DNA of 64,000 nucleotides from an uncultured archaeon (GTDB lineage Archaea > Asgardarchaeota > Lokiarchaeia > Sigyniarchaeales > SOKP01), in the NCBI GenBank assembly GCA_964525635.1, contig CAZGJX010000003.1, positions 39,465 through 103,464 on the forward strand. The letters run 5' to 3'. Position 1 is the first letter of the stretch, and each line of letters opens with the position of its first letter. A program made the position numbers and the translations under genes. Positions 228 to 32,943 of this stretch are shown piece by piece. A model generated the notes under the pieces. That model worked only from the letters and a program-made list of their open reading frames with translations. It did no database searches and was not told the DNA's origin.

Positions 228-1286
228 ATGTCTGAAGAGATTAAGATATTAACAGGATTAAACAGTGTAATTAAGAATATAGATCTATCAACCAATGATG
301 CAGAAGAAATAATGCGTGAGATTATGAGCGGAAGAGTCACTAACGCTCAATTAGGAGCATTTTTAACTGCATTAAACATGAAAGGTGAATCTATTGATGA
401 AATAGTTGGATTTGCAAAAATTATGAGAGAATTTGCAAATCGTATCGAACCAAATGTTTCAGGTGAATTATTGGATACATGTGGAACAGGAGGAGATAAA
501 ATAAAAACATTTAATATTAGCACGATTTCTGCAATAGTTCTTGCTGGAGCTGGAGCTTATGTTGCAAAACATGGGAATAGAGCAGTTACAAGTAAATGTG
601 GAAGTGCTGATTTATTAGAAGGACTTGGAGTAAATATAGCTTTAGAACCAGGAAAAGTAAAGAATTGTATTGAACAAGCAGGAATTGGCTTTATGTTTGC
701 TCCTCTGTTTCATCCTGCTATGAAATATGCAATGCCTACTAGAAGAGAATTAAAAATCCGAACTGTCTTTAATATTTTAGGTCCTTTAACAAATCCAGCT
801 AATGCAAAATGTCATGTTTTAGGTGTATTTAAAAAAGAGATGGTTCCAATCATGGCGAAGGTTCTAAAAGGATTAGATGCAAAACATGTCTTTACTGTTC
901 ATAATTCATATGGAATTGACGAACTTGCTCCCACAGGAGTAAATTATATTACAGAATATATGGATGGAAACCTTGAAAGTTATGCAATTACCAATAAAGA
1001 ATTTAATATTCCTGATTGTTCTATTAATGAATTGTTAGCCGGAAATCTTGAGGAAAATTTAAAAATAGCAATTGATATTCTCAAAAATCAATCTTCTGGG
1101 GCAAAATTTAATACGGTTTTAATGAATGCTGCTTTAGCATTAAAAAGTATAGATATTGCTCATGATTTTCAAGAAGGTGTGGCAATTGCTAAAGAAACGA
1201 TTGAATCTGGAAAAGCCTTTGATAAATTAAAAAAATTTATTGAAATTTCTGGTGGAGATATCCAAAAATTAATGAATCTTACATAA
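228..1286 (+). CDS. trpD: anthranilate phosphoribosyltransferase
   Basis: Has the DTCGTGGDK and KHGNRAVTSKCGSADLLEGLG motifs. It is the first gene of a trp operon. Confidence 0.92.
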   Translation: MSEEIKILTGLNSVIKNIDLSTNDAEEIMREIMSGRVTNAQLGAFLTALNMKGESIDEIVGFAKIMREFANRIEPNVSGELLDTCGTGGDKIKTFNISTISAIVLAGAGAYVAKHGNRAVTSKCGSADLLEGLGVNIALEPGKVKNCIEQAGIGFMFAPLFHPAMKYAMPTRRELKIRTVFNILGPLTNPANAKCHVLGVFKKEMVPIMAKVLKGLDAKHVFTVHNSYGIDELAPTGVNYITEYMDGNLESYAITNKEFNIPDCSINELLAGNLEENLKIAIDILKNQSSGAKFNTVLMNAALALKSIDIAHDFQEGVAIAKETIESGKAFDKLKKFIEISGGDIQKLMNLT

Positions 1287-1305
1287 ATTAAGAGTAAACT
1301 AAATA

Positions 1306-2109
1306 ATGGTTTCAGATAAAATAAGAGAAATAGTAAACAAGAGATTAAAAACAATATCTAATGATATTGAATATGAAAAACATATGGAAAGTTCAATTCA
1401 AAATAAAAATATTTTAAATCTAAGTGAAACTATTAAAAATAATAAAGGAATTTCAATCATTTCTGAAATAAAACCAGCATCACCAACATTAGGAGAAATA
1501 AGAAGCAATATTAACGTTCCAGATATTGCTAAAATCATGAAAGATTCAGGTGTTATTGGATTAAGTATTTTGACAGAACCAAATTATTTCAATGGTTCAT
1601 ATACTAATTTGAAATTAGCTGTTGAAACTACAGAATTACCTTGCTTGATGAAAGATTTTGTTATTAATCCTATCCAATTTTCTATAGCTAGCAAACTTGG
1701 AGCAACGAATATTTTAATTATTAACTCAATTGAAAATCTAAATTTAGAGGAGTATTATAATTTAGCAATGAATTATCATCTTGAACCACTTATCGAAATT
1801 CATGATATAGATGAAATTAAAGATATTCAACATTTATTCGAAATTGGTTTTAATCCAAAATTAATTGGTGTTAATAATCGCAACCTGAATACCTTATTAA
1901 TAGATCTTAATACATCTAAGAAAATTATACCAGAATTAAAACAAGAATTTGGAAATAAAATTCAAATTGTAAGTGAAAGTGGTATAAATTCTCATAGTGA
2001 TATTAAAGAATTGCAATCTTATGGTGCTAATGCATTTTTAATAGGATCTTCAATTATGAAATCAATTGATATTAGTAAAAAGATCCATGAATTAAGAGGT
2101 GTAGATTAA
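1306..2109 (+). CDS. trpC: indole-3-glycerol-phosphate synthase
   Basis: Has ISEIKPASPTLG, LTEPNYFNGS and a TIM-barrel-like pattern. Operon context supports the call. Confidence 0.88.
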   Translation: MVSDKIREIVNKRLKTISNDIEYEKHMESSIQNKNILNLSETIKNNKGISIISEIKPASPTLGEIRSNINVPDIAKIMKDSGVIGLSILTEPNYFNGSYTNLKLAVETTELPCLMKDFVINPIQFSIASKLGATNILIINSIENLNLEEYYNLAMNYHLEPLIEIHDIDEIKDIQHLFEIGFNPKLIGVNNRNLNTLLIDLNTSKKIIPELKQEFGNKIQIVSESGINSHSDIKELQSYGANAFLIGSSIMKSIDISKKIHELRGVD

Positions 2110-2762
2110 TGGAATATATTAAAATCTGTGGTATCAAAAATTTTGATGATGCCAAACTATGTATTGAAAATGGAGCAGACGCAATAGGATTTGTATATAA
2201 TGTCCCTTCTTCTCCAAGAAATCTAGAAATAAATGAAATTAATTCACTTATTAATCAGATAAATAATAAGATTTCTACAGTCTTAGTAACTAAATCTAAT
2301 AATTTGGAGGAAATTCAAAGATTAATAAAGGAGTATAATATTACATATTTTCAAATACATTCAAATTTAGATATTAATGAGTTTAATCAACTTCCAACTG
2401 AAATAAAACAAAAACTTATTATAACTCTTAAAGTAAATAATGAAAATAAAGATTCAATCACATCAATCATCAATAAATTCAATGACCAATTTCATGCCTT
2501 TTTATTAGATAATAGTGAAGGTCATGGAAATGAATTAGATATAAATCTAGTAAAAAAAATTATAACCAATTTAAAAGATACGAGAATTATTCTTGCGGGA
2601 GGAATAAATATTAAAAATATTGAAAATATTATTAAAATTTTAAATCCCTATGGTATTGATCTTAGTAGCTCTTTAGAATCTGAAAAAGGAGTGAAAGACC
2701 CTAATAAAATTATAAATTTCTTAGAAAAAATAAATGGAATAAAAAATAACATTAAAAATTGA
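2109..2762 (+). CDS. trpF: phosphoribosylanthranilate isomerase
   Basis: Has an IKICGI N-terminus and GADAIGFVY. Its start overlaps the trpC stop (ATG/TAA overlap at 2107-2111), and an AGAGGTG SD lies upstream. Confidence 0.8.
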   Translation: MEYIKICGIKNFDDAKLCIENGADAIGFVYNVPSSPRNLEINEINSLINQINNKISTVLVTKSNNLEEIQRLIKEYNITYFQIHSNLDINEFNQLPTEIKQKLIITLKVNNENKDSITSIINKFNDQFHAFLLDNSEGHGNELDINLVKKIITNLKDTRIILAGGINIKNIENIIKILNPYGIDLSSSLESEKGVKDPNKIINFLEKINGIKNNIKN

Positions 2763-3983
2763 GTGAAAATGGACTATATTGGAAAATATCCTGATAAATT
2801 AGGAAAATTTGGTGATTTTGGGGGTATGTTTGCACCTGAGATCCTTATGCCTGCACTAAATGAATTGACTGAAGCATATAATAAATATATACATGATGAT
2901 GAGTTCCAAAAAGAATTTTATGACATTCTTAAAGATTATAGTGGAAGACCTACACCATTGTATTATGCATCTAAACTAAGTGAACAGATTGGGTGTAAAG
3001 TTTACTTAAAGAGAGAAGATCTCTCCCATGGAGGCGCTCACAAGATCAACAATGTTATAGGACAATCGCTGCTCGCAAAGAAAATTGGTAAGAAACGCTT
3101 AGTAGCTGAAACCGGTGCTGGGCAACATGGATTCGCAACGGCAATAGCGGGGGCTTATTTTGGAATGCCAACAAAAGTATTTATGGGAGAGGTAGATATA
3201 GTAAGACAATCTATGAATGTATATCGAATGCAACTCCTAGGTGCTGAAGTTATTCCTGTTAAATCAGGTTCTAGAACATTGAAAGATGCTATTAATGAAG
3301 GTTTAAGATATTGGATAGCAAATGTTCATGATACACATTATCTCATGGGGAGTGTAGTTGGACCACATCCATATCCTATGTTAGTAAGAGAATTTCAAAG
3401 AGTTATTGGTAAGGAAATAAAACAACAAATATTAGAAAAAGAAGGTAAGCTTCCTAATGCGATTATTGCGTGTATTGGAGGAGGTAGTAATGCTATTGGA
3501 GCTTTCTATGACTTTGTAAATGATGATGTTCAATTAATTGGTGTAGAGGCGGGTGGAGAGGGAATGGAGAGTGGTAAACATTCAATAGCATTAGGTTTAG
3601 GACGTCGAGGTGTTTTACATGGTGCTATGCAACATCTTTTGCAGGATGAGTTTGGAAACATTCTTGAAACTCATTCTATCAGTGCAGGATTAGATTATCC
3701 AGGGGTCGGACCAGAACATTGCTATTTAAAAGAAATTAATCGCTTAAGAGTTGGGGAAGCAACTGATCAGGAGACTTTAGAGGCATTTAAGAATTTATCT
3801 CGTGTTGAAGGTATCATTCCAGCCTTGGAAAGCAGCCATGCTCTTGGATATCTATACAAAATTAGAAATGAATTCGATAAATCAGATATAGTTATTATCA
3901 ATCTTTCTGGATCGGGAAGTAAAGATTTATCAATTGTGGCAGATCATATAAAATTTAAAATACATCCTAAGAACATATTGTAA
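2763..3983 (+). CDS. trpB: tryptophan synthase beta chain
   Basis: Has the [12 protein letters not shown]-lysine motif, [14 protein letters not shown] and a LSGSGSKDL tail. The start is either GTG 2763 or ATG 2769. Confidence 0.95.
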
Positions 3984-4025
3984 TTTTCTTTAGAAAATTA
4001 AATTAATTATTTAAAGTATTAATAA

Positions 4026-4160
4026 ATGATGGAAAATATGGGAATTAACAAGAATAAAATTGAAGAATGTAATGATGATACAGTTATTGTTAAATTATCT
4101 GGTTCAGGATAAAAAGATCTTGATATAATTAAAGAATATATGGTGTTTAAAGTAAAATGA
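4026..4160 (+). pseudogene. relic 3' end of a second trpB copy (about 44 codons with an internal TAA)
   Basis: The frame reads ..DDTVIVKLSGSG*KDLDIIKEYMVFKVK*, parallel to ..[23 protein letters not shown].. of the intact TrpB. Its final TGA overlaps the trpA ATG (ATGA, 4157-4160). Confidence 0.5.
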
Positions 4161-4993
4161 GTAATACAAATAGATTATTTAAGTTATTTAATGGTAGAGA
4201 TGTCAATGACAAATATTTTATGCCCTTTTTTGTAGCAGGAGATCCGAGTATTGATGAGTTTAAGAATATCATCAAGAAAATTGAGCCATATGCAGATATC
4301 ATTGAAATTGGGATACCATTTTCCGATCCTATTGCAGATGGTCCAACAATTCAAGAAGGAAATGTAAGAGCCTTTAAAGCAGGAATTAATACAAAAGTAG
4401 CTCTGGATGCAATTAAAGAACTAAGAAAATCAACTGATAAACCTTTTGTTATTTTAACTTATTATAATATACTTATTCAAGGAGCTGAAACAATAGAAAA
4501 GTCAATTGATAAAACATTTAAACAATTAAAAGAAAGTGGAATAGATGGAATGGTTATCGCAGATCTACCAATTGAGGAAGCAAATTTAGTTTTAGAAGCA
4601 TGTGAAAAGTATGATTTAGCATTAATATTTCTTGTTGCACCTTCTACCACAGAAGAAAGATTAAAAAAGATCTTGCTTAAAGCAAAAGGATTTATTTATC
4701 TAATATCAGTAATGGGTGTAACTGGAGCAAGAGAAACGGTTGCTCAAATTACAAAGGAGAATATAGCAAGAATAAAGCAAAAAACTGATAAAAACCTTCC
4801 CGTTTTTGTAGGATTTGGTATATCAAAACCAGAACATGCAAAAGCTATTATTGAAGCAGGAGCAGATGGAGTTATAATTGGTTCTGCGATTGTAGATCTT
4901 ATTAAAAATAATCTAAATGATTTTCAGGAAATTGAAGGAAAATTAGTAGAATTTCATGAAAACATAAAAAATTCAATAAAGAGGTCGAATTAA
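4157..4993 (+). CDS. trpA: tryptophan synthase alpha chain
   Basis: Has IEIGIPFSDPIADGPTIQ and GFGISKPEH motifs. Confidence 0.92.
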   Translation: MSNTNRLFKLFNGRDVNDKYFMPFFVAGDPSIDEFKNIIKKIEPYADIIEIGIPFSDPIADGPTIQEGNVRAFKAGINTKVALDAIKELRKSTDKPFVILTYYNILIQGAETIEKSIDKTFKQLKESGIDGMVIADLPIEEANLVLEACEKYDLALIFLVAPSTTEERLKKILLKAKGFIYLISVMGVTGARETVAQITKENIARIKQKTDKNLPVFVGFGISKPEHAKAIIEAGADGVIIGSAIVDLIKNNLNDFQEIEGKLVEFHENIKNSIKRSN

Positions 4994-4994
4994 A

Positions 4995-6491
4995 TTGGAT
5001 TTTGACATACATATAGAAAAAATTGGAGAATTAGATAATATCTTTAATTTTTATAAATATCTCATCGAAAAATATGATTTTAAGAAGCATGTCCTATTAG
5101 AATCCTCATCAGGAAACTCAAACGAAACCTTATATAGTTTTATTGCTCTTGAACCTGATTTTATGTTTGAAATTAATGGGAAGAACTATAAAATTTTCGA
5201 TATCACTTCAGAAAGAGGTGAAAATATCAAAAATTATGTTGAATCTAAAGATCCCGCTAAGGAAATACCACGTAATCCCCTACCATTTAATGATAATGTC
5301 GATTATAATATGATTGCTTTAGATACCTTAAGTCATCTTACCCCATATTCTAAATTACCTTTTACTGAACTATTTCCAAGAAATATATTTTTTGGAGGAG
5401 TAGTAGGGGTGATCTCTTATGATATAGTAGCACCATATGTTGGTTATCAATCTAATAGTGAATTTCCAGATATTCTCATGGGACTTTATACAAAAGTACT
5501 TGTATATTCGCACAAATCTAATGCTTTATTTATGATAGATAATAGCCTTGATGATTATTCAAGGGACAAGGACATTAGATATCAATTAGAATTGTTTAAA
5601 AGAAATAATATTAAAAATAAAAAGAAAGATATTCCATTAGATCTCGACGATATAGATGAAAGTATGTTTAGATCGAATACTTCTAAATCAGCTCACGAAC
5701 AAATGGTGAACAAGACTAAAGAGCATATATATGCTGGCGATATAATTCAAGCGGTTATCTCTAGAAGACTATATACTGAAAGTAAAGTAAATCCTATTAA
5801 TTTTTATGAAATACTTAGAGAGCTTAATCCCTCGAATTATATGTATAATATCAATTTCAATTATATTAAAATAATTGGTAGTAGCCCCGAAGCTCTTATA
5901 ACAAAAAATAAAGATGTTCTATCAACTATGCCAATAGCAGGAACGATAAGAAGAAGTAAGGATCCAGAAGAAGACTTGAATTTAGAGAGAGAATTACTAG
6001 GTAATATAAAGGAGAGGGCCGAGCACCTCATGCTAGTAGATTTGGCAAGGAATGACTTAGCTAAGGTCTCATATCCTGGAACTGTCGAAACATTTGATTT
6101 TATGACGATTCAGAAATACCAAAAAGTTCAACATATCGTAAGCAAAGTTAGAAGTAAGACACCTCTTGATGGTTTTCAAGCATTAAAAAGTGTTTTTCCT
6201 GCAGGGACATTATCAGGAGCACCCAAATTAGAAGCTATGAAAATAATCCAAGAACTTGAAACTGAAAATCGCTCATTTTATGGTGGAGCAATTGGCTATT
6301 TCAGTTTTAATGGGGATCTAGCAATGGCAATTGCCATTAGAACATTATTTGGTCGGGGAAATAAATATTTTGCTCAAGCAGGGGGTGGAATTGTCGCAGA
6401 CTCCCAACCAGAACAAGAATTCCAAGAAACTTATAACAAATTATACAGTGTTTTGAAATCAATTAAGATAGCGGAGGCAAGAGAACAATGA
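4995..6491 (+). CDS. trpE: anthranilate synthase component I
   Basis: Has LVDLARNDL, GTLSGAPK, FYGGAIGY and AGGGIVADS. It uses a TTG start 10 nt after an AGAGGT SD. Confidence 0.92.
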   Translation: MDFDIHIEKIGELDNIFNFYKYLIEKYDFKKHVLLESSSGNSNETLYSFIALEPDFMFEINGKNYKIFDITSERGENIKNYVESKDPAKEIPRNPLPFNDNVDYNMIALDTLSHLTPYSKLPFTELFPRNIFFGGVVGVISYDIVAPYVGYQSNSEFPDILMGLYTKVLVYSHKSNALFMIDNSLDDYSRDKDIRYQLELFKRNNIKNKKKDIPLDLDDIDESMFRSNTSKSAHEQMVNKTKEHIYAGDIIQAVISRRLYTESKVNPINFYEILRELNPSNYMYNINFNYIKIIGSSPEALITKNKDVLSTMPIAGTIRRSKDPEEDLNLERELLGNIKERAEHLMLVDLARNDLAKVSYPGTVETFDFMTIQKYQKVQHIVSKVRSKTPLDGFQALKSVFPAGTLSGAPKLEAMKIIQELETENRSFYGGAIGYFSFNGDLAMAIAIRTLFGRGNKYFAQAGGGIVADSQPEQEFQETYNKLYSVLKSIKIAEAREQ

Positions 6492-7083: not shown

Positions 7084-9855
7084 TTAACTAAGAGAAAGTT
7101 CAAGTAATTCTCTACCTAACTTAGTAAGAGAATATTTATATTGTCTTTTATTATTACTTAAGGTAGAAGGATTATAAGCAATTATTCTTTTTAAATATCT
7201 TTTCTTATAAAGATCTCGTATCATCCATTCAAGGCTCTTAATATCATCCAAGTAATTTAACTTTAATAGATCTAAAGCAAAATAAGATCCTTTGCTAAAT
7301 TCTAGTAAAATTCTTCGCTGAAAATCTGTTAGATAATTGAAACCTTCACGGTCACCTAACTTTTTTCTATATTGAATCTCATCTTCATAGTCTTCTACAA
7401 AAAATTTTCGATGATCAAATTTCGGAATGGGAGGTAATTTTTTTCCTGTTTTTTCTTCAATCTGTCTTATTATTTTTTCTTGCATTTCTTCAAGCTCAAT
7501 TTTTTTCCATTCTCCATTTCGCATTTCATATCCAAGCACTATTAATAATATATATTGTTTCTCACAAAATTCAATTTTGAACTGATCAATTTCTAATTGT
7601 CTTTCATGATCCTCTTCCTTTTTTTGCCATTCTGGCACTCTAATATAATGTTGCCTTCCTTGTCGCTCAAAACCTACTAATAATTCAAGATTAAAACCAT
7701 CTAAATGCATTCTAGTAATATCAAAATTGATTTTATTTGGATCATATCTCGCTAAGCCTTCTCTACCTTCGATATTTAAAACTATTTGAATTAGTGGTGT
7801 CTCAAGAAATTTAATTTGTTTCTTATACAAGTAAGAAAATATTCTTTCCATATAACATCTGAATACTTTCTCATAATAACCCTTTGAGCAATGAGGACAC
7901 CATGACCTTCTTTTTTTCACTTTATATATCCGCTTTTTAAAAATTTTCTTACACTTTCCACATCGCCAATTATGTAGTTTATCGCTTCCCTTATATATAT
8001 TCGATAAAAATTCACCAGGTGCTCCCGTTTTTTCTAAACCCACTTCATAAGCCAATTTTCTTAATCCCTTAATAGTAGGCGTAACTTTATGAGCACACTT
8101 AGAACACCAACTTCTTCTCGATTTCACTTTGTTAGGTGTCATAGTAAACTCATGTTTGCAAGCACCACATTTCCATCTAAGTTTGGATGTCGCTCCTTTA
8201 TATTCATCAGACAAACAAAATCCAGGGACTTTAGTTTTTTCTAGCCCAACTTCATATGCCAAAATTCTCATATCTTCAATAGTCTGTTCTTTACCAGCAC
8301 ATCTAGGACACCATGACCTTTTCGATTTTATATCATTTGGTGTCATAAAAAATTTATTTTCACATTTTCCACAATACCATTCTAATTCTGTGGAAGAATT
8401 AATATACTTATTGGATAAACACCGTCCAGAAACACCCGTTTTCTCCATTCCAACATCATAAGCTAATTCATGCATATCCTCAATTGTTATTTGTTTATGT
8501 AAAAAATGTGGATTATTACTACATCTAGGACACCACTCCTTTCTAATTTTCACTTTATCAGGGTTTTTTGAGAATACATATCTGCAAGCTCCACATCGCC
8601 ATTTTAATTCAGTTTTCATATTTATATAATTTTTTGATAAACACTCACCTTCAATCCCTGTTTTTTCTATACCTACCACACGGGCTAGTTCTTGCATATC
8701 TAATATAGAATATTTCTTAATTTCTTTAACCCCTCTTACTTTTAATTTAATGTTAACTTCGTTTGCTAATTGTTGCAATAAATTAAAAGAATCCTCAGGG
8801 ATAGATTTACTTTGATAGATAATATCTCCAATTCTGGTATGAATATAATCACTAATAGATTTGTTTGTCATACTTAACTCTAACCTCAATTTATCTATTA
8901 AAGACTTGGTCTTTTCCTTATCAAGTATGAAATATTTTTTTATAGGGAATGTCGATTTAGTATAAATTCCATCATAAATCGTTTCGCTCTTCTTATAATC
9001 TTCTTCATTCATAAAATTATAAAATTCATAACCACACTGACCACATTTCCATAGAAGTTTTGTTTTATTATTAAAATATTCTTTGGATAAACATTTTTTT
9101 GGAACTCCAGTTTTTTCTAATCCCAAATCATGGGCTAATTTAATCATATCTCTTATTTTTTCCTCTTTTTTCTTTTTATAAATTATAAATTTCTTTAATT
9201 CATCTCTAATTACTTCATAGAAATGAGAGAGATTATTTGAATTCCATTTTTCTTTTATGATGATAAAAATATGAGAGATGATCCATTTTAAATATACTTC
9301 AACATCAGATTTATAAAAAGGATCTTTTTTTATTTTTTCTTGAAACTTAGCATGATATGTATTAAATTCTTCTGTTCTCAACTTTTTGTAAAGATTTTCA
9401 AGATAAATTCTTTGAATCTTCTTTTCTGTAATTGGCAAAATAAAATCTTCTAAATTTTTTAATACTTCACTTTTTAATTTACTTTTTTTTATTTTTTGCT
9501 TTAAATGTCTTTCCACATCTCCGATTATATCATATATGAGGCGAGAGATTATAATGACGAGATTTTGTTTAAATAATTTTGGAAAATCAGGGTCATAATA
9601 AACCCTCTCGATTGGATATTTATATGTTTTTCTTATTTCTTGTTCTTTATTGTTAATTCTTTTATCCTCATATTTTTCCTCAGAATGAATATTATCTTGA
9701 ACAAAAATATTTTTTATCTCAAATTTCGTTCCACAATATTGACAAAATGCGAATTCATCGGCTATTGGATTATTTTCTATATCTTTTATCTGTAATCTAA
9801 TACCACAATTTTCACAAAATAAGGAGTTCCCATTCTTGTTTTTTGACTCATTCAT
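7084..9855 (-). CDS. 923-aa multi-zinc-ribbon protein with a candidate restriction-endonuclease-like domain and a C-terminal winged-helix-like tail
   Basis: The N-terminus has CENCG..CQYCG. Five copies follow of a module of about 65 aa (LAxxVGxEKTGxxGxCLSxxY..LxWxCGxC..F...P..VK...SWCPxC). Then comes MHLDGFNLELLVGFERQGRQHY, and the protein ends in ..YKYSLTKLGRELLEL. Confidence 0.6.
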   Translation of the reverse strand: MNESKNKNGNSLFCENCGIRLQIKDIENNPIADEFAFCQYCGTKFEIKNIFVQDNIHSEEKYEDKRINNKEQEIRKTYKYPIERVYYDPDFPKLFKQNLVIIISRLIYDIIGDVERHLKQKIKKSKLKSEVLKNLEDFILPITEKKIQRIYLENLYKKLRTEEFNTYHAKFQEKIKKDPFYKSDVEVYLKWIISHIFIIIKEKWNSNNLSHFYEVIRDELKKFIIYKKKKEEKIRDMIKLAHDLGLEKTGVPKKCLSKEYFNNKTKLLWKCGQCGYEFYNFMNEEDYKKSETIYDGIYTKSTFPIKKYFILDKEKTKSLIDKLRLELSMTNKSISDYIHTRIGDIIYQSKSIPEDSFNLLQQLANEVNIKLKVRGVKEIKKYSILDMQELARVVGIEKTGIEGECLSKNYINMKTELKWRCGACRYVFSKNPDKVKIRKEWCPRCSNNPHFLHKQITIEDMHELAYDVGMEKTGVSGRCLSNKYINSSTELEWYCGKCENKFFMTPNDIKSKRSWCPRCAGKEQTIEDMRILAYEVGLEKTKVPGFCLSDEYKGATSKLRWKCGACKHEFTMTPNKVKSRRSWCSKCAHKVTPTIKGLRKLAYEVGLEKTGAPGEFLSNIYKGSDKLHNWRCGKCKKIFKKRIYKVKKRRSWCPHCSKGYYEKVFRCYMERIFSYLYKKQIKFLETPLIQIVLNIEGREGLARYDPNKINFDITRMHLDGFNLELLVGFERQGRQHYIRVPEWQKKEEDHERQLEIDQFKIEFCEKQYILLIVLGYEMRNGEWKKIELEEMQEKIIRQIEEKTGKKLPPIPKFDHRKFFVEDYEDEIQYRKKLGDREGFNYLTDFQRRILLEFSKGSYFALDLLKLNYLDDIKSLEWMIRDLYKKRYLKRIIAYNPSTLSNNKRQYKYSLTKLGRELLELSLS
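7885..8709 (-). repeat. four tandem, diverged coding repeats (about 195 nt each) of the helix + CxxC..CxxC module
   Basis: Protein residues 383-657 of the 923-aa ORF form four near-collinear modules. A degenerate fifth copy lies at 9022-9156. Confidence 0.8.
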
Positions 9856-10104: not shown

Positions 10105-12309
10105 ATGAATCATATTAAGAACGATCTAATAGAAAATTGTATTTTACATGGTAAATTTCATGAAGCACTTAATAGTCTTAACTCAATTGAAAGAAGAAGA
10201 GTTTTATCTGATAATGAGTTGCTAATGAAAAAATTAACTAAGATTTATATTTGTATTGATAAAGGAGATTTTAAGAAAGGTAGATCAATTGCTGATGAGA
10301 TGATTAAGCTTTCACAAGAAAAAAATAATATATTGAGGGAGATTGATGGCCTTATCGGTAAGGTTGAAAATATGCTTTGTTTAGTTTTATATAATGATGC
10401 GCTTCAATTATTAAAAAAAGCAGAATCGATATTAATTAAAGCTCAAAATATATCAATAAAAGAATTTAAACGGAAAAAAGCATATATAATCTATCTTAAA
10501 GGAAGAATTTGTCAAGATACCCATAAAATCAATGAAGGAATAAATTATTTTAAGGAAAGTCTTAAAATAAGAAAAGATATAAATGATAGGATAGGTATAA
10601 TCTGGACTTTATTAAATCTAGGTATATTAACCGTAGCTATTGGAGAATTTCAAAATGCAGAAAAATATATTACCAAAAGTTTAAATCTTGCTGAAGAATT
10701 CAATATTGAGGCTGCAATTATTTGGAGTTTGATTCATTTAGGGTGGATTAAATATCACAGAAGAGAACTAGATCTTCTAATGGTTTATGCCCAAAAATGT
10801 CTTTTGATTTGTAAATCACAAAATTTTAAGTATTCATTAGCTTATTGTTATGATCTTATTGGACATTATCACCTCATTAAAGGAAATTTAAATGACGCTT
10901 TACATAATTTTGAAATAAGTTTAAATTTAAGATTAGAAGAAGGATATAGATATTCATTACCACAATCGTATTATAGTATTGGAGAAGTATATAGTCAGAA
11001 AGGTGAACTTAGAGAGAGTTTAAAATATTATCACAAAATTATAGATATTCCCTTAATTGATGAGAAAGAATTCTTTACACCAGTTTATTTAAGTACAATG
11101 GGTAAAATCTATGGTGAACTCGGTGATTTTCCTAAAGCTAAAAAATATTTATCATCTGCTTTAGACTTATTTAAAAAAAACAAAATGTTAACCATTCACT
11201 TCCAAAATTTCACTATGTCAATTGCTAAAACTTATCATTTTTTAATTGTTCTTTCAATACGGAATAATGAACTCGAGAATATAAATAATTACTTAGAGGA
11301 TTTACATCAAATAAGTCAGGAGCACCCAAATCTTAAATATATTAGCCAAATATATAAATTAGATAAAGCTATAATATTAAAAATAAGTAATCGTGTTAAA
11401 ATTCGAATGAAAGCAGCCAATATTTTTAAAAAACTTTCTGAAGAAAAAATAATTGATCATGAAATTACAATTGAATCTATGACAAATTTATGCGAACTTT
11501 TGATATATGAATTAGAATTGACAGGAAATGAGGATATACTTATAGAGATAAAGGATATTTCTAATAAATTACTTAAAATAGCAGAAGCGCAGTATCTATA
11601 TAATTTAATGGTCGAAATATATTTATTTAAAGCTAAAATATCATTATTAGAGTTAGATCTTAATAAGGTACATGATTTTCTATCAAAAGGTCAAAGAATA
11701 GCATTGAATTTTGATTTAAAATTATTATTAAAAAGAATTTCCAGTGAATATGATTCATTACTAGTTAATAAAGATAAATGGGAGGAAATGATTAAAAAGC
11801 AAATCCCATTACAAAAGCGAGTGAATTATTCAAGATATGAATTTTTATTTTCTAGTATGGTTCGAACTAAAATCAAAAAGTCAATAGAACTTCCAGAATT
11901 GCCTTATTATTTTATAACTCTCAGTAATATCGATGGATACTGTTTATATGAGAAGAATCTCCAAGAGAAATTAAATATAGAGGGAGATTTTATAGCAGGA
12001 TTTATTTCAACTATAAATCTATTTGGTAAAGAAGCTTTCTCTTCCTTAGATTCAATTAACCGAATTAAACATGGAGATTTTTTTATAATTCTACAGTCTA
12101 AGGAAAATTTTTTATTTGGTTATGTATTTAAAGGTCAATCTTATTCTGCAATAACTAAATTAGATCTTTTCATTAAAAAATTAACAGAATTTAATGATAT
12201 ATTCAAAAAATTGTATTATTCTTTACAGAGCCATCTTGAATTATCAGAAGAAACTAAAATATCAATAGATAATTTAGTTAATGAGATTTTTATACAAGAT
12301 AATAAATAG
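10105..12309 (+). CDS. TPR-repeat protein with a C-terminal longin/roadblock-like alpha/beta domain
   Basis: Shows repeated 34-aa TPR-like periodicity (..AYIIYLKGRI..,..LLNLGIL..,..YDLIGHYHL..). The C-terminal 140 aa follow a beta-beta-alpha-beta-beta-alpha pattern (YFITLSNIDGYCLYEKN..FIAGFISTINLFGKEAF..IKHGDFFIILQ..FLFGYVFKG). Confidence 0.7.
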   Translation: MNHIKNDLIENCILHGKFHEALNSLNSIERRRVLSDNELLMKKLTKIYICIDKGDFKKGRSIADEMIKLSQEKNNILREIDGLIGKVENMLCLVLYNDALQLLKKAESILIKAQNISIKEFKRKKAYIIYLKGRICQDTHKINEGINYFKESLKIRKDINDRIGIIWTLLNLGILTVAIGEFQNAEKYITKSLNLAEEFNIEAAIIWSLIHLGWIKYHRRELDLLMVYAQKCLLICKSQNFKYSLAYCYDLIGHYHLIKGNLNDALHNFEISLNLRLEEGYRYSLPQSYYSIGEVYSQKGELRESLKYYHKIIDIPLIDEKEFFTPVYLSTMGKIYGELGDFPKAKKYLSSALDLFKKNKMLTIHFQNFTMSIAKTYHFLIVLSIRNNELENINNYLEDLHQISQEHPNLKYISQIYKLDKAIILKISNRVKIRMKAANIFKKLSEEKIIDHEITIESMTNLCELLIYELELTGNEDILIEIKDISNKLLKIAEAQYLYNLMVEIYLFKAKISLLELDLNKVHDFLSKGQRIALNFDLKLLLKRISSEYDSLLVNKDKWEEMIKKQIPLQKRVNYSRYEFLFSSMVRTKIKKSIELPELPYYFITLSNIDGYCLYEKNLQEKLNIEGDFIAGFISTINLFGKEAFSSLDSINRIKHGDFFIILQSKENFLFGYVFKGQSYSAITKLDLFIKKLTEFNDIFKKLYYSLQSHLELSEETKISIDNLVNEIFIQDNK

Positions 12310-12481
12310 AACTTCTTTGATTATATATTGAAGCAGTAATTTTGTATATATTTTTTAAGACTATATCTTTGTAGGGAATATAAAACTGAAAAAAAAAGAT
12401 TCAAAATTATTTGTTATAAAAAAATATATTTTACTAATGATAATTTAATTTTTACAAAACTAATAAACATATAGCTATAAG

Positions 12482-14677
12482 ATGGATGATAATCAGATAG
12501 AAAAGTATATTTCAATTGGAAAATATGAAGATGCACTAAATAACCTCAAGTTAATTGAGAAAGAGAGAATTTTATCAACTGATGAAGATTTATTAAAAAA
12601 ATATGTATTATCTTTTATTTCTCTTGATAAAGGAGATTTTGAGAAAGGAATAAGAATTGCTGATAAACTTATAAAGGAAGCCTATGAAGAAAATAATATT
12701 TTAGGGGAGATTAATGGTATAATTGCAAAGACCGAAAATACTAGTACCTTAGGGCTATTTAAAGAATCGCTTAAATTAATAGAGGAGGGCGAATTAATCC
12801 TTAAAAATTGTAAAAATATTTTCCCAGTTGTTAAAAAACAAAAACAAGCTTATCTAATTTATTTAAAAGGAAGAATATATCGAGATACTCATTATATTTT
12901 TGATGCAATAAAATTTTTAAAAAAAAGTTATAAATTAAGAAAAGAAATAAATGATAAAGTTGGAATGATGTGGTCTTTATTAAATTTGGCCTCCATCATT
13001 AATGTTAATGGTAATTTTAAAAGTGCAGAAAGATATTTTAATGAAAGTCTAACAATAGCAGAAGAATTAAATATTGAGGAGGGAATAACATGGAATTTAA
13101 TTTATTTTGGTTGGTTAAAGTATCATCAAAGAGATCTAACTAAAGCAATTTCTTATGCTAAAAGATGTCTCTCTATTTGTGAACCAAAAAATTATAATTA
13201 TCCAAATACAAGATGTTATGATCTTATCGGACATTGTTATCTTTTAAAAGGAAAATTAAACACAGCTTTACTTTATTTTGAGAAAAGCCTGAATATAAGA
13301 GAAATTGAAGGATATAAACAGATGCTACCAGTATCATATTATTCTATTGGATTAGTTTATTGCCAGAAAGGAGAATTTAAACGAAGTTTAAGTTATTATG
13401 AAAAAACTTTAGAATTATTAGATCTTGAAGTAAGAGAACTGGTAATACCTGTGTATTTAAACGCAATTGGTAAGGTTTATGGTGAAATAAATAATTTCCA
13501 AGCTGCAAAAGAACATTTACTAGAAGCTTTAAATATATTAGAAAAGAATGAAATACCATTGTTTCAATTTTTAAACTTTAACGTCTCTATTACATCTACA
13601 TTACATAATTTAATTTTACTCTCCGTGAATAATAATGATCTTAAGAATGTTAAAAATTACTTAGAAAAAATACATAAAATAAGTATGGATAATCCGGATA
13701 TTAAGCAATTTGATCATCTTTATCATTTAGATAAAGCTATAATTTTAAAATCAAAAAATCGTTTAATGGATAAGATGGAAGCAGTAAATATTCTTGAAAA
13801 TATAATAAAAGAAGAAATTATAGATCATGAAATAACAGTAGAGGCTATGAAAAATTTATGCGAAATTTTATTATATGAATTAGAATTATCGGGAGATAAA
13901 GATATTCTACGAGAAATAGAGGCCCTTTCAGAAAGATTACTTGAAATTAGTAGATCAGAATATTTATATGATTTATTAGCTGAAACTTATTTCTTTAAAG
14001 CAAAAATATCCTTATTAAATTTAGAGACTCAAAAAGCACGTTTATTATTAACAAAAGCACAGAATATTGCAAATGAGCATGATTTAATAAGATTAGCATC
14101 CAAGATATCAAATGAGCACGATTCGCTTTTAAAAAATCTTGATGAATGGGAAATAAAAATTAAACAATCTGAATCTTTAAAGGATATATTGCATAATAAA
14201 AAAGATGATTTTCTTTTTATAAAAAAAGACTTATCCGATAATAATAAAGAATCAAAGAATTATGATATTCCTGTCTATTTCATTATTATTAATAATATAA
14301 ATGCTGAATATTTATATAATAAAGCATTTCAAAATATTAATATTGATAATGCGAGCCTTATAGCAGGATATATATCAGCAATTAATATATTTGGGAAAGA
14401 AACCTTTTCATCCTCAGGTACGATCTCTCGAATTAAACATGGAGAATATCTAACAATTCTTCAATTAAAGAAGGAATTTTTATTTGGATATGTCTATAAA
14501 GGATATTCTTATTCCGCTATCTCTAAATTAAATAACTTTATTCAATCTTTGAGTAAAGCAACGAATGATCTTGAAAATATTACTATAGATTTTGAAAAAT
14601 ATCTTAAACTTCCAGAAGGTATAAGTATAACAATTAATAATTTAGTAAATGAAATTTTCTTGGAAAACAAAAATTGA
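12482..14677 (+). CDS. TPR-repeat protein with a C-terminal longin/roadblock-like domain (tandem paralog of 10105-12309)
   Basis: It is collinear with the upstream paralog over its full length. It has the same C-terminal core (LIAGYISAINIFGKETFSS..IKHGEYLTILQ..FLFGYVYKG) and the same terminal I.I.NLVNEIF motif. Confidence 0.7.
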   Translation: MDDNQIEKYISIGKYEDALNNLKLIEKERILSTDEDLLKKYVLSFISLDKGDFEKGIRIADKLIKEAYEENNILGEINGIIAKTENTSTLGLFKESLKLIEEGELILKNCKNIFPVVKKQKQAYLIYLKGRIYRDTHYIFDAIKFLKKSYKLRKEINDKVGMMWSLLNLASIINVNGNFKSAERYFNESLTIAEELNIEEGITWNLIYFGWLKYHQRDLTKAISYAKRCLSICEPKNYNYPNTRCYDLIGHCYLLKGKLNTALLYFEKSLNIREIEGYKQMLPVSYYSIGLVYCQKGEFKRSLSYYEKTLELLDLEVRELVIPVYLNAIGKVYGEINNFQAAKEHLLEALNILEKNEIPLFQFLNFNVSITSTLHNLILLSVNNNDLKNVKNYLEKIHKISMDNPDIKQFDHLYHLDKAIILKSKNRLMDKMEAVNILENIIKEEIIDHEITVEAMKNLCEILLYELELSGDKDILREIEALSERLLEISRSEYLYDLLAETYFFKAKISLLNLETQKARLLLTKAQNIANEHDLIRLASKISNEHDSLLKNLDEWEIKIKQSESLKDILHNKKDDFLFIKKDLSDNNKESKNYDIPVYFIIINNINAEYLYNKAFQNINIDNASLIAGYISAINIFGKETFSSSGTISRIKHGEYLTILQLKKEFLFGYVYKGYSYSAISKLNNFIQSLSKATNDLENITIDFEKYLKLPEGISITINNLVNEIFLENKN

Positions 14678-15999: not shown

Positions 16000-17502
16000 A
16001 TGTCAGATTACTTAAAGAATAAAAGTTTTTTGGATTTTATTTTAAAAGAATCAAATGAAAAGTATAATTTCATACTTCAGAATACAAATGATTTGATTCA
16101 AATTCTCAATGATAAATTTAAAATTGATTATATAAATGACCAAGCTCATTTTAAAACAATAGGATATTCTAGCGAAGATTTAATTGGAAATAACTTAGGA
16201 GAACTCATTCATCCAAATGAGTCCAAGGACGTCAGACTTTTCTTAGAAAACCTTCTAAAAAATGGTGAAACAGAACGTGAAGGAAGATTAAAACATAAAA
16301 ATGGGAATTGGATTTGGTTTAATATAAGAGGAAAAAAAATTTTAGATCTAAATGATGAGATAAAATATTTGATAATTTCGAGAGAAATCTCAAAAGAAAA
16401 AAAAGTAGAAGAAGAGTTAAAAACTTCTGAAGAGAAATATCGTCTTATAACAGAAAATGCAAATGATTTAATTGATATTATTGATAAAGATTTTAAAATT
16501 GAATATATCAATGAAGAAGTCCATAAAAAAATACTAGGTTATTCAAAAAAAGATTTAATTGGAAAATTAGCTATTAATTTTGTCCATCCAGATGATTTTT
16601 TAACTGCTATGAAATCTTTAAAAAGAGGAATTAAGCAAGGTGAGGGAGAAGCAGAAATAAGATTTAAACATAAAAATGGAAATTGGGTATGGTTAGAAAT
16701 TAGAGGGAGAATATTTATAGATATTAATGGTAAGGAGAAAGGATTATTAATTTCTAGAGATGAAACAAAAAGAAAAGAAGCTGAAGAAAAATTAAAAAAG
16801 ACATTAGAAGAATTAAAACGTTCTAATGCGGATTTAGAGCAATTTGCTTATATTGCTTCACATGATCTTCAGGAACCTCTCCGTATGGTGGCTAGCTTTA
16901 CACAATTATTGGGCAAACGTTATAAAGATAAATTAGATTCAGACGCAAATGATTTTATTAATTTCGCAGTAGATGGTGCTAAACGAATGCAAGAATTGAT
17001 AAATGATTTATTAACCTATTCAAAAGTAAGAACACATGGGCAACCCTTTGAGGAAGTTGATTTAAATAAGATCCTGAAAGATGTTCTAAAGAATTTAAAA
17101 TTTTCTATTGATGATTCAGATACTATATTTACCTATGATCCTTTACCTGTAATAATGGGTGATAGCTTACAGATCTCTCAATTATTTCAAAATTTAATTT
17201 CAAATGCAATAAAATTTAATGATAAAGAACAACCTATGGTTAGTATATCTATAAAAACAAAAAAAAAAGATTGGGTTTTTTCTATTCGTGATAATGGAAT
17301 TGGAATAGATCCTAAATATTATGATACCATATTTAAAATCTTTAAAAGATTGCATAGTAGAAAAGATTATCCAGGATCAGGAATAGGACTATCGATATGC
17401 AAGAAAATAATTAAACGTCATGCGGGAGAGATTTGGGTTGAATCAGAAGAAGGAAGAGGTTCAGTATTTTATTTTTCAATTCCAAAAATTAAAATTAGAT
17501 AA
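16000..17502 (+). CDS. sensor histidine kinase with two PAS domains
   Basis: Two PAS-like repeats (..RLKHKNGNWIWF.. and ..RFKHKNGNWVWLE..) are followed by H-box ASHDLQEPLRMV, N-box ISNAIKF, DNGIGI and GSGIGLSICKKI. Confidence 0.9.
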   Translation: MSDYLKNKSFLDFILKESNEKYNFILQNTNDLIQILNDKFKIDYINDQAHFKTIGYSSEDLIGNNLGELIHPNESKDVRLFLENLLKNGETEREGRLKHKNGNWIWFNIRGKKILDLNDEIKYLIISREISKEKKVEEELKTSEEKYRLITENANDLIDIIDKDFKIEYINEEVHKKILGYSKKDLIGKLAINFVHPDDFLTAMKSLKRGIKQGEGEAEIRFKHKNGNWVWLEIRGRIFIDINGKEKGLLISRDETKRKEAEEKLKKTLEELKRSNADLEQFAYIASHDLQEPLRMVASFTQLLGKRYKDKLDSDANDFINFAVDGAKRMQELINDLLTYSKVRTHGQPFEEVDLNKILKDVLKNLKFSIDDSDTIFTYDPLPVIMGDSLQISQLFQNLISNAIKFNDKEQPMVSISIKTKKKDWVFSIRDNGIGIDPKYYDTIFKIFKRLHSRKDYPGSGIGLSICKKIIKRHAGEIWVESEEGRGSVFYFSIPKIKIR

Positions 17503-24511: not shown

Positions 24512-25512
24512 TTCTGGGAAATTTAAATTCTAAAAATATAATCGTCAATGTAAGAAATCTCAAAGTTAACTTTAAAAAAAAAAAAATTATTCATGACGTA
24601 TCCTTTCAAGTCTACAAAGGAGAAATTATTGGATTATTTGGAATATCTGGGGCAGGTAAGACAACTATAATTAGAGTTCTAACTTGCCAAATAAAGGAAA
24701 AAAATTGGAAAGGGATAGTATCAGTAACTAATTTAAATCCTAAAAGAAAAAAGAATCATTCAAAAATACTGAGTAATATAGGATATGTTCCTCAGTTAGA
24801 ATTACTTAATCTATATTATGATTTATCTCCTTTGGTAAATGTTGAAATATTTGCATCTAATTATGGACTAAAAAAAGAAATTGCATTAAAAGCTGCAAAA
24901 GATTTATTTTCAATTTTAGATATCCCAAAAGATACCTGGAAAAATCCATTAGAAAAACTTAGTGGTGGTGAGAAAAAGAGAGTTTCTATGGCTATTGGTT
25001 TAATTCATAAACCTAGTGTATTATTTCTCGATGAGCCAACGACAGGAGTAGATGCAAACAAACGTTATGATATTTTAAATTATCTAAAGATATTAAATAG
25101 AAAATTGGGAACAACTATGTTTTTAATTACACATGATCTAGAAGCAGCTTTAATATGTGATAAAACAGCAATTTTAAGAGAAGGAAAATTATTAGAATTT
25201 GATGAACCACACAATTTAATATCCTCTCTTCCAAGTGAAGGAAAATTAGCAAGATTTATAATAGAGGACTTAAATGAGGATATAATTAATTTAATACAAG
25301 AATTTCCTTATTGTGAGTTTGTAGTTCGCACGGGAAATGATGTATTAGAAGTATTTATGAATGATTTTGAAAAAAATTTTATGGAATTTATCAATTTTTT
25401 ATTTAACAATAAAGTAAAAATAATTTCAATGAGTAGAGATATAGCAAATTTTAGGAGATATTTTCAAATACGAATTCAAGAAGAAGAAAGAAAAATTTAT
25501 GAAAATTTATGA
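24508..25512 (+). CDS. ABC transporter ATP-binding protein (5' end extended beyond the ORF-track start)
   Basis: Walker A GISGAGKTT (about 24640-24666) lies upstream of the track start at 24832 in the same open frame, which contains no ATG/GTG/TTG. LSGGEKKRVSMA and LFLDEPTTGVD lie downstream. An AAGGAGGT SD at 24493-24500 is followed by an in-frame ATA at 24508. Confidence 0.8.
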   Translation: MILGNLNSKNIIVNVRNLKVNFKKKKIIHDVSFQVYKGEIIGLFGISGAGKTTIIRVLTCQIKEKNWKGIVSVTNLNPKRKKNHSKILSNIGYVPQLELLNLYYDLSPLVNVEIFASNYGLKKEIALKAAKDLFSILDIPKDTWKNPLEKLSGGEKKRVSMAIGLIHKPSVLFLDEPTTGVDANKRYDILNYLKILNRKLGTTMFLITHDLEAALICDKTAILREGKLLEFDEPHNLISSLPSEGKLARFIIEDLNEDIINLIQEFPYCEFVVRTGNDVLEVFMNDFEKNFMEFINFLFNNKVKIISMSRDIANFRRYFQIRIQEEERKIYENL

Positions 25513-29644: not shown

Positions 29645-30103
29645 TTATTTAGAGAAAAGCAATGATATTTTATCCTCTATATTATTCTTAGATATTCCAA
29701 GAATATTATCAATAATATTTTTGAATTGGATAAATTGTGTGGAATATGAAAAATCATGACCATGATAATTTACTTTAAATTTATGTAAAATGTTTTCTAA
29801 TAGAGGATTAATTTTTCTTTTTACATTTTTATCGAATTTTTCATTCTTATCTAATATAAGATAGGCAAAGATATCTGTTATCTCTGAATTAATAGTATTA
29901 ATTTTTTCCTTTTTAAAAATAAAATTATATTTAGTACTTTCAAAAGACTCTATTGGCGAAATAAGGGTTTCAGCAAAATTTAATAAACAAGAAAGTAATG
30001 CACATTTATGAATTAAATCCTCATCCTTTTCACTAGGATTAATATAATTAGCACTTATTATAGGAATACCCCCGATAATAATACCTGCTTCATAAATTTG
30101 CAT
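29645..30103 (-). CDS. small soluble protein with a longin/roadblock-like N-terminal pattern
   Basis: MQIYEAGIIIGGIPIISANY..DEDLIHKCALLSCLLNFAETL..YNFIFKK..IFAYLILD follows the same beta-beta-alpha-beta-beta order as the C-termini of the TPR proteins. Confidence 0.45.
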   Translation of the reverse strand: MQIYEAGIIIGGIPIISANYINPSEKDEDLIHKCALLSCLLNFAETLISPIESFESTKYNFIFKKEKINTINSEITDIFAYLILDKNEKFDKNVKRKINPLLENILHKFKVNYHGHDFSYSTQFIQFKNIIDNILGISKNNIEDKISLLFSK

Positions 30104-32118: not shown

Positions 32119-32943
32119 ATGATTAAGAATATCTATATTTTAAGCAGAAATGGGATGTTGCTATATTCAAAAAATTTTATTGAACAAAAATACGATGATA
32201 ATTTATTAATTGGATTCTTTACGTCAGTAGAAAATTTTAGTCGAGAAGCTTTAGAAAGTATTGTAAAATTTATAGATCTTGGTGTAGATAATAAATTAAT
32301 CCTTAAACCAAAACCAGATGAAAAGATCTTTGGTGCAGCTATAGTAAGTTCTAAGGATAACAATATATTAGTGGGTAAGATACTTGATAACATATTGCAA
32401 GATTTTATTGATGATTTTTCACCTGATTATAATCTTGATAGAAAAAGTAAAAGTAAAATGGATAAAAATATAGAGGACAATCTAAAAAAACGGACATCTT
32501 CATCATTAAGAATTAGAATATTAAAAACTTGGTTAATATTAGGACCACTTGGATTATTACTTACAATTATTAACATAATGGCGACAGAATATTTTATTTC
32601 ATCCAGACAATCTGAATATGGATCTTTTTTTTATATGGAAGATATTCTATTAAGCATAATACCACAAGTAGTTTTAATTTCTTTAGCTGAACTTGTTTTA
32701 GTATTTGGTGTTGCTAATTTCATATCTGGATATATAATATTAGACCTCAAGCTAGCTGCTATAAATGTACTTCTATATTTTGGTTATATTCTTATCTTTT
32801 ACTTTATATCTGTAAAACCTGTCTTAGCTCTGATTATTCTCACGTTTTTTCCATTCATTATAGTCGCATCTTTATTGGCAGCATATCTTGGTTATGTTTT
32901 AGCGCTTCAGAGAATAACACTTAGAGTAAAAGAAATAGATTAA
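32119..32943 (+). CDS. longin/SNARE-like (AP-sigma-like) domain protein with a C-terminal multi-TM anchor
   Basis: MIKNIYILSRNGMLLYSKNF..LLIGFFTSVENFSREAL..IFGAAIVSS..ILDNILQDFIDDF parallels the sigma-adaptin/longin pattern. Four hydrophobic segments follow. An AGAGGA SD sits 7 nt upstream. Confidence 0.55.
   Translation: MIKNIYILSRNGMLLYSKNFIEQKYDDNLLIGFFTSVENFSREALESIVKFIDLGVDNKLILKPKPDEKIFGAAIVSSKDNNILVGKILDNILQDFIDDFSPDYNLDRKSKSKMDKNIEDNLKKRTSSSLRIRILKTWLILGPLGLLLTIINIMATEYFISSRQSEYGSFFYMEDILLSIIPQVVLISLAELVLVFGVANFISGYIILDLKLAAINVLLYFGYILIFYFISVKPVLALIILTFFPFIIVASLLAAYLGYVLALQRITLRVKEID

Follow-up and report, generated by a model that had tools for sequence, protein, structure and literature searches.

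Tandem tetratricopeptide repeat proteins with a predicted C-terminal longin domain, members of a paralog-rich protein family of Asgard archaea

The gene pair and its setting

The DNA considered here is a 64-kb stretch (64,000 nucleotides, hereafter the window; G+C content about 26%) of contig CAZGJX010000003.1, from an uncultured lokiarchaeial member of the Asgard archaea. Two adjacent genes near its beginning, gene 1 and gene 2, lie 172 nt apart on the same (+) strand, and each encodes a protein in which a long region of tetratricopeptide repeat (TPR)-type helices is followed by a C-terminal domain of about 140 amino acids (aa) that is predicted to adopt the longin fold (Table 1). In eukaryotes the longin fold controls small GTPases in membrane traffic. 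The Asgard archaea, whose cells are mostly without internal membranes, have longin and roadblock domains as well as small GTPases among their principal eukaryote-like components. The arrangement was first noticed in a reading of the DNA sequence alone, referred to below as the original prediction, and the analysis described here followed it up with profile searches, structural models and a survey of related loci.

Judged from their sequences, the two gene products are collinear paralogs, as had been proposed: BLASTP aligns them over 725 aa with only two gaps (48% identity, 70% positives, E = 0), a similarity far beyond chance. The motifs previously singled out in their C-terminal parts (ISIDNLVNEIF and ITINNLVNEIF at the two ends, RIKHG, and FLFGYV(F/Y)KG) are all present in the translations, and the borders then drawn for the domain, 11887-12306 and 14258-14674 (aa 595-734 and 593-731), fit the structural model described below, in which the first strand starts at aa 599. 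Each gene has an ortholog in a related locus, L008 (positions 950-3163, 59% identical to gene 1; positions 3315-5498, 62% identical to gene 2), and the synteny continues downstream into a GNAT gene (65% identical) and a PAS kinase gene (71% identical). Since these orthologs are more alike than are the two neighbours (48%), the duplication that produced the pair is older than the split from L008, and both copies have been retained. The same-strand order in the window is gene 1, gene 2, GNAT, kinase and two response regulators.

Table 1. Position in the window of the gene pair, of the segments of its products and of further features discussed in the text
Feature	Position	Strand	Basis
Gene 1, TPR-longin protein, 734 aa (P0161)	10105..12309	+	Open reading frame list; paralogy to gene 2; full-length model
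Gene 1, aa 1-400, variable N-terminal TPR array (TPR_12/LGN-type repeats)	10105..11304	+	Pfam, model, Foldseek
Gene 1, aa 401-565, conserved family-specific helical (TPR-like) module	11305..11799	+	Model helices aa 411-565; conservation
Gene 1, aa 566-596, short helix and low-confidence, probably flexible linker	11800..11892	+	Model confidence (pLDDT)
Gene 1, aa 597-734, predicted C-terminal longin domain (~138 aa)	11893..12306	+	AlphaFold2 models, Foldseek, PF19036 signal
Gene 2, paralogous TPR-longin protein, 731 aa (P0162)	12482..14677	+	Open reading frame list, BLASTP, Pfam
Gene 2, aa 593-731, predicted C-terminal longin domain	14258..14674	+	Family profile, E = 2e-46 across the domain; collinear with gene 1
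PAS histidine kinase, downstream of the pair	16000-17502	+	
Response regulators, downstream of the kinase	starts 17595 and 18066	+	
Distant relative, 274 aa: longin-like aa ~1-110 (32119-32448), then hydrophobic region	32119..32943	+	Family profile, hhalign, jackhmmer

The helical region

The Pfam models TPR_12, TPR_1, TPR_2, TPR_8, TPR_10 and the extended TPR_MalT all score above threshold in both proteins, between aa ~130 and 535, with TPR_12 reaching 77 and 98 bits in the two members of the pair against a gathering score of 30.1. In the gene 1 product the matches at aa 131-359 are to TPR_12 (E = 1e-21), TPR_2, TPR_1 and TPR_8. A full-length AlphaFold2 model of this protein, built from a 42-sequence full-length alignment, has a predicted local distance difference test score (pLDDT) of 86.1 and a predicted TM-score (pTM) of 0.84. 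It contains 29 helices between aa 2 and 577, arranged in helical hairpins over aa 2-565, and the paired antiparallel helices of the model, taken with the Pfam scores, place the region among the tetratricopeptide repeats. When the whole model was used as query in a fold search, it retrieved only TPR superhelices (LGN/Pins, TSK, Ctr9, OGT, subunits of the APC, and Rap, with E-values of 1e-7 to 1e-5), and no solved structure joining a TPR part to a longin part was found in this full-length search of the PDB.

Conservation is far from even along the chain. Column by column, it is lowest in the N-terminal TPRs and peaks at aa 420-560 and again at aa 620-680, the latter stretch corresponding to α1-β5 of the longin domain; over aa 420-560, as in the longin core, the fraction of the most frequent residue is 0.45-0.58. 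The helical module at aa ~400-565 has no specific Pfam family, the extended TPR_MalT being the single Pfam model to reach it, and its matches in the PDB are only to designed helical proteins. Between the end of the last helix and the first strand of the longin domain, at aa 578-594 of the full-length model, pLDDT falls below 50.

Fold of the C-terminal domain

The original prediction set the C-terminal region apart from the TPR array, as a longin- or roadblock-like domain with elements in the order strand-strand-helix-strand-strand-helix. An AlphaFold2 model of the domain alone (pLDDT 87, pTM 0.77) is an α/β sandwich, in agreement with that separation, and its elements are β31-39, β45-50, α59-77, β85-88, β91-98, β101-108, α111-141 and α147-165, preceded by a helix of low confidence (pLDDT ~60) that is equivalent to the short helix ahead of the linker in the full-length model. 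The elements of the full-length model are β599-607, β613-618, α627-646, β653-656, β659-666, β669-676, α679-695, α697-709 and α715-733. The general α/β order of a longin or roadblock type had thus been recognised correctly, while the list of elements needs amendment, the models having one more strand and one or two more helices than had been read from the sequence. The five β-strands have pLDDT values of 85-97 in both independent runs, and the order β-β-α-β-β-β-α-α, alike in both models, is the longin order and not the α-β-β-α-β-β-β of a roadblock domain, for which reason longin is chosen here between the two folds originally offered.

Comparison of the domain model with the PDB by Foldseek, for which the 50 best matches were considered, bore out the expected relationship, in that all 50 belong to the longin/roadblock superfamily (E from 1.2e-4, TM-scores 0.45-0.54). 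The first among them are AP1 σ (4p6z_S, E = 1.2e-4), Ccz1/Mon1 (2e-4) and Fuzzy (3.7e-4), and others include AP-2 σ, TRAPPC1/2/4, ζ-COP, the longin domain of VAMP7, LAMTORs, dynein roadblock and MglB, the longins having E-values of 1e-4 to 2e-3. On the order of its elements and on structural similarity, the modelled C-terminal domain is therefore assigned to the longin fold.

Residues that are invariant or nearly so in the domain alignment (46 diverse copies) and the full-length alignment are R653 and I654 in the RIKH motif of β3, and Y673, G677, S679 and A682 in the stretch YVFKGQSYSA at β5/α2. Longin-containing subunits of GTPase-activating proteins (GAPs), such as FLCN, NPRL2 and SMCR8, are characterised by the residues GP in the β1-β2 region and by a catalytic arginine finger (PMC12290439). 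The present family has an invariant arginine on β3 (R653) and a near-invariant glycine in the β1-β2 turn; the window proteins read IDGYC and INAEY, without GP.

Sequence relationship to the FUZ/MON1/HPS1 group

A recurrent sequence signal emerges when the family is considered rather than the pair. Ten of the 46 diverse copies of the domain match PF19036 (Fuz_longin_1) with E <1, the best at 5e-5, while each other Pfam family is matched by at most two of the 46 (among the top 25 of the 33 families found), and the family consensus scores 23.6 bits against PF19036 (E = 6.3e-5). The closest relative by sequence is thus the first longin domain (LD1) of FUZ, MON1 and HPS1, which are subunits, each with three longin domains, of guanine nucleotide exchange factors (GEFs) for Rab GTPases. 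In Pfam terms the Asgard domain is best described as a longin related to the FUZ/MON1/HPS1 LD1 group rather than as a member of it.

Size, distribution and paralogy of the family

A word-index homolog search with the domain returned merely 2 and 13 short proteins. The extent of the family became apparent in an exhaustive search of 1.84 billion cluster representatives (clustered at 50% identity) with a profile hidden Markov model (HMM), in which 871 of them match at E <= 1e-3, including 538 at E <= 1e-10; the majority are 600-790 aa long, with the match at their extreme C-terminus. A genome scan with two peptide patterns, derived from a 10-sequence subset and applied to 185,579 species, each represented by a single genome, yielded 76 loci, of which 70 are labelled as Asgard archaea, five as 'uncultured archaeon' and one as 'Bathyarchaeia'. 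The Asgard labels span Promethearchaeota/Lokiarchaeota, Heimdall-, Hod-, Thor- and Hermodarchaeota and Atabeyarchaeia, and one of these loci (L075, with the family gene at 4456-6390) is from the cultured Promethearchaeum syntrophicum MK-D1. This distribution suggests that the family is essentially limited to Asgard archaea, with the reservation that the scan is biased by its two patterns. The sole locus with a non-Asgard phylum label (L026, on the 447-kb contig DATKZI010000014.1) belongs to a metagenome-assembled genome assigned to Candidatus Bathyarchaeia, and its 725-aa protein resembles equally long copies from Heimdallarchaeota (L014, L017, L022); the genome could be mislabelled, or the gene could have been transferred.

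For 66 members the alignment with the window proteins extends over at least 500 aa, with about 30% identity in those from Heimdall-, Hod- and Hermodarchaeota, which implies that the architecture in its entirety has a long history among the Asgard archaea. In public records the homologs are described as 'tetratricopeptide repeat protein' or as 'hypothetical', with Pfam hits to TPRs only, and an exact-sequence cluster look-up gave no protein names.

Local multiplication is a further feature of the family. Two or more members are present at 17 of 75 loci, with up to four in tandem, and the 108-kb contig from which the window is taken contains at least six. A Logan contig that overlaps the start of the window (L081, in which window position 1 is position 11810) adds five more tandem TPR-longin genes at L081:2-11448, coding for proteins of 554 aa (cut by the end of the contig) and then 735, 732, 731 and 729 aa, directly upstream of a trp operon. 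This operon is thus flanked by arrays of the family, and about 26 kb of DNA here contains at least seven copies. Elsewhere, in loci labelled as Hod-, Hermod-, Heimdall- and Promethearchaeota (L016, L043, L044, L046, L054), a recurrent pair is found in which a member of 654-753 aa with a tail of about 31-36 aa after the longin domain is followed by a tailless member of 721-755 aa; this may be an older, conserved pair of two subtypes.

Possible relatives within the window

It had also been proposed that the same core recurs in two proteins encoded further downstream, and this holds for one of them. The 274-aa protein encoded at 32119-32943 is matched by the family HMM (E = 7e-8) and aligns in hhalign with the 46-sequence domain alignment over its aa 5-74 (probability 93.6%, E = 2e-7), so that β1-β5 are covered; a jackhmmer search seeded with it recruits the whole family. 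To judge from the translation, its C-terminal half is hydrophobic and is probably a multi-pass membrane region, and the product would then be a membrane-anchored longin protein. A 570-aa open reading frame (ORF) without a Pfam match (30383-32095, + strand) ends 24 nt upstream of it. For the second protein, of 152 aa (29645-30103), the similarity is not significant: BLASTP gives E = 0.4, the family HMM E = 0.11, hhalign a probability of 5%, and a 198-sequence HMM 7.8 bits. Although the weak alignment falls in the expected register, it is not counted as evidence, and a metagenome scan for relatives of this protein, made for profile building, found none.

Neighbouring genes and small GTPases

When 622 ORFs neighbouring family genes at the 76 loci were clustered, no non-family cluster was present at more than nine loci, and the recurring neighbours are unrelated housekeeping genes (peptidase S9, POR, FtsX, HEAT, methyltransferase, UvrA). 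A family gene directly adjoins a small GTPase gene only in L062, L068 and L070, which are 95-97% identical to one another and count once. In these loci, labelled as Promethearchaeota or Hodarchaeota (L062:1-3917, L068:2-1169, L070:1-1755), a gene for a Rab/Ras-like GTPase of about 180 aa lies directly downstream on the same strand, and in L062 it sits between two family genes. No general genomic linkage between the family and small GTPases was found at the related loci, and this single independent case of adjacency is not taken as evidence for one.

A possible role for the TPR-longin proteins

Longin and roadblock domains dimerise through their central helix and an edge strand, and the dimers bind small GTPases, serving as GEFs, GAPs or scaffolds (PMC10933270, PMC12290439). 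Because α1 and β3-β5 are the most conserved elements of the present family, and because such dimers are known, a dimerising longin platform is favoured. By analogy, then, the proteins would be TPR adaptors, with a ligand that varies from paralog to paralog, whose longin domains dimerise into a platform that may serve small GTPases; this proposal we hold to be moderately probable. Helix α1 and edge strand β3, the best-conserved elements of the longin domain, would provide the contact with a second such domain, which could belong to another copy of the same protein or to a paralog, for example the product of the neighbouring gene. The two-domain platform so formed would dock a partner, most plausibly one of the many Rab-, Arf- or Rag-like small GTPases of these archaea, while a peptide or protein, different for different paralogs, would be bound in the variable TPR groove. 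The family would in this way be a series of adaptors or regulators that keep their core and have diversified in specificity. The GTPase step taken by itself is tentative and must be called somewhat doubtful. The keeping of the paralog pair across species is compatible with a hypothetical heterodimer of two different subunits that would have Rab GEF activity.

A number of findings weigh against this proposal. As regards the domain itself, neither of the window proteins has a longin match in Pfam, or indeed any Pfam match in its last ~140 aa; the consensus score against PF19036 lies below the gathering score of 26.1 bits; and profile searches of PDB sequences, with a four-sequence alignment and with the 46-sequence alignment, retrieved no longin protein. 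The longin relationship was revealed by fold comparison and not by these sequence profiles, and the Foldseek E-values, modest in themselves, give no preference for any one longin subfamily. As regards genomic context, Pfam scans and searches with HRAS and ARF1 (used only as probes) found no small GTPase gene in the window, and at the related loci small GTPases make up 10 of the 622 neighbouring ORFs (1.6%, at 7 of 75 loci), a proportion drawn from these neighbourhoods alone. Finally, 58 of the 75 loci have a single family gene, so that a fixed tandem heterodimer is not the rule for the family. In MK-D1, small GTPase genes generally lie outside operons containing roadblock, longin or TRAPPC3 genes (PMC10933270), and missing linkage therefore has limited weight either way.

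The most serious alternative is that the longin domain is used only for dimerisation or docking, as in the AP σ and μ subunits and the SNARE longins, with the TPRs organising a complex in which no GTPase takes part. This would fit the lack of GTPase linkage in the window and generally at related loci, as it would the finding that some roadblock and longin proteins act outside GTPase regulation (PMC10933270). The best single Foldseek match, AP-1 σ, is moreover a structural subunit, and the conserved helical module beside the longin domain could be an intramolecular partner for it. Nevertheless, the sole recurrent sequence signal is to the first longin of FUZ/MON1/HPS1, which is a GEF-forming domain, and the missing linkage is weak evidence for the reason just given; we regard this explanation as unlikely, if not to be neglected.

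A quite different possibility, that the domain binds a small molecule and feeds the two-component system encoded downstream, appears improbable. In its favour, sensors of the GAF/PAS kind are related in structure to the longin and roadblock folds, the pair, the GNAT gene, the kinase and the response regulators follow one another on one strand, GNAT and kinase genes adjoin the pair in L008 as well, and NPRL2-like longins of Asgard archaea are reported in fusion with two-component domains (Liu et al., 10.1101/2020.10.19.343400). The synteny, however, extends to one close relative (59-71% identity) and is absent from the other loci, where no non-family neighbour occurs at more than nine of 76; no GAF or PAS structure is found among the 50 best fold matches, and no ligand-binding motif was identified.

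Slightly less probable again is a roadblock/MglB-type, GAP-like domain in place of a longin. Roadblock, LAMTOR and MglB structures occur among the Foldseek matches at E ~1e-3, and the domain-only model does have a helix ahead of its first strand, but the confidence of this helix is low and in the full-length model it is detached from the domain by the disordered linker. The two to three helices after β5 are the longin arrangement, and PF03259 (Roadblock/LC7) is absent from the top 25 of the 33 Pfam families matched by the 46 members, of which ten match a longin family, and from the scan of the consensus. That the region might do no more than prolong the TPR array in divergent form, or be an artefact of prediction, for which the absent Pfam match on the window proteins is the only argument, is scarcely credible and is refuted by both AlphaFold2 models and by the Foldseek matches, with five confident strands in two independent runs, in a segment that is the most conserved of the family and that occurs without TPRs on the putative membrane protein at 32119.

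Comparison with known systems

LD1 of FUZ, MON1 and HPS1 (PF19036; structures 5LDD, 7Q3E and 9RS8) has in common with the Asgard domain the longin fold and its order of elements, as well as a sequence pattern across β1-turn-β2-α1-β3 from which the only recurrent Pfam signal arises, and structures of this group are among the best fold matches. The eukaryotic subunits have three longin domains and no TPRs, whereas the Asgard proteins have one longin domain after about 565 aa of TPR-type helices; in the full-length model there is a single longin, not three in succession. For the Asgard proteins, furthermore, a partner subunit, a GTPase client and GEF activity are hypothetical. It is conceivable, though distinctly unlikely on present evidence, that the TPR-longins are extant relatives of the ancestral form from which the catalytic first longin of the tri-longin RabGEFs (Mon1-Ccz1, Fuzzy-Inturned, BLOC-3) arose, with paralog pairs acting as heterodimeric GEFs for Asgard Rab-like GTPases and the TPR arm selecting the site or cargo. 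Were this so, the GEF-plus-adaptor logic of compartment identity would predate eukaryogenesis.

The AP and COPI subunits of the σ, ζ and N-terminal μ type offer a second comparison, sharing with the Asgard proteins a longin-type fold and the theme of a helical solenoid, and providing the best Foldseek match. In those complexes the longin subunits are held in an α-solenoid trunk of HEAT/adaptin type, whereas in the Asgard proteins a TPR_12-type solenoid and the longin domain are on one chain, joined by a flexible linker; the appendage domains and other subunits of AP and COPI are absent from the TPR-longin proteins. The similarity is at the level of fold only, PF01217 (AP σ) being absent both from the top 25 of the 33 Pfam families matched by the 46 members and from the scan of the consensus (E <=10). 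TPR superhelices of the LGN/Pins and Rap/MalT types match the N-terminal 400-560 aa in Pfam and in fold, without having a longin domain; this is a generic TPR similarity and carries no functional assignment.

Expansions of longin and roadblock domains, with fusions not seen in eukaryotes, are an established feature of Asgard genomes, in which 130 asCOGs of the Roadblock/LC7 superfamily have been described (Liu et al., 10.1101/2020.10.19.343400). The present family fits this pattern, being found in the same taxa, rich in paralogs, built from a non-eukaryotic combination of domains and without systematic linkage to GTPase genes, and the assignment has good support as regards both fold and family. 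The Asgard architectures discussed in the literature consulted differ from it: they comprise longin-GTPase and longin-TRAPPC3 proteins, NPRL2-like longins with two-component domains, and proteins combining Vps28-C, an adaptin appendage and a longin domain with optional TPRs, the TPRs being among the extra domains of the Vps28-C/longin proteins (Makarova et al.). No description of a family of ~700-aa proteins with TPRs and a C-terminal longin domain was found in the literature, although it may already have been catalogued among the asCOGs. With public records that mention only TPRs or nothing, and with no solved structure of the combination found, the earlier statement that the architecture could not be assigned to a described family appears to stand.

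Among Asgard longin architectures the TPR-longin family ranks with the larger and the more widely conserved, having members in the Loki, Heimdall, Hod, Thor, Hermod and Atabeya lineages. Recognition of the longin domain provides concrete candidates in the search for partners, and the constant core with its variable TPRs and the retained paralog pairs make these proteins suitable test cases; a connection with Rab activators of the Mon1/Fuzzy/HPS1 class is also possible. Should the domain prove to be only an assembly module, its recognition would still be a useful correction of the annotation.

Other genes in the window

Several other genes deserve brief mention. Divergent from gene 1 is a gene (7084-9855, - strand) for a 923-aa protein with about five repeats of ~65 aa that match DUF4379, a treble-clef zinc finger, in the pattern …EKTG.PG.CLS..Y…L.W.CG.C…F……WCP.C…; its C-terminal ~300 aa are unannotated. 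Unusual combinations are seen in a 1004-aa protein (25683-28697, + strand) in which an α-α toroid of prenyltransferase type accompanies an ABC ATPase domain, and in a 1475-aa protein (59174-63601, + strand) with a weak match to a toroid of the same type. In two ORFs, at 24832-25512 (+ strand) and 36053-36616 (- strand), the similarity is confined to C-terminal portions of the ABC_tran profile (positions 84-137) and of ABC-2 membrane profiles, and these may be truncated or decayed transporter genes. A 496-aa protein encoded at 52016-53506 (+ strand) has a peptidase C13 (legumain-type) domain, here in an archaeal genome.

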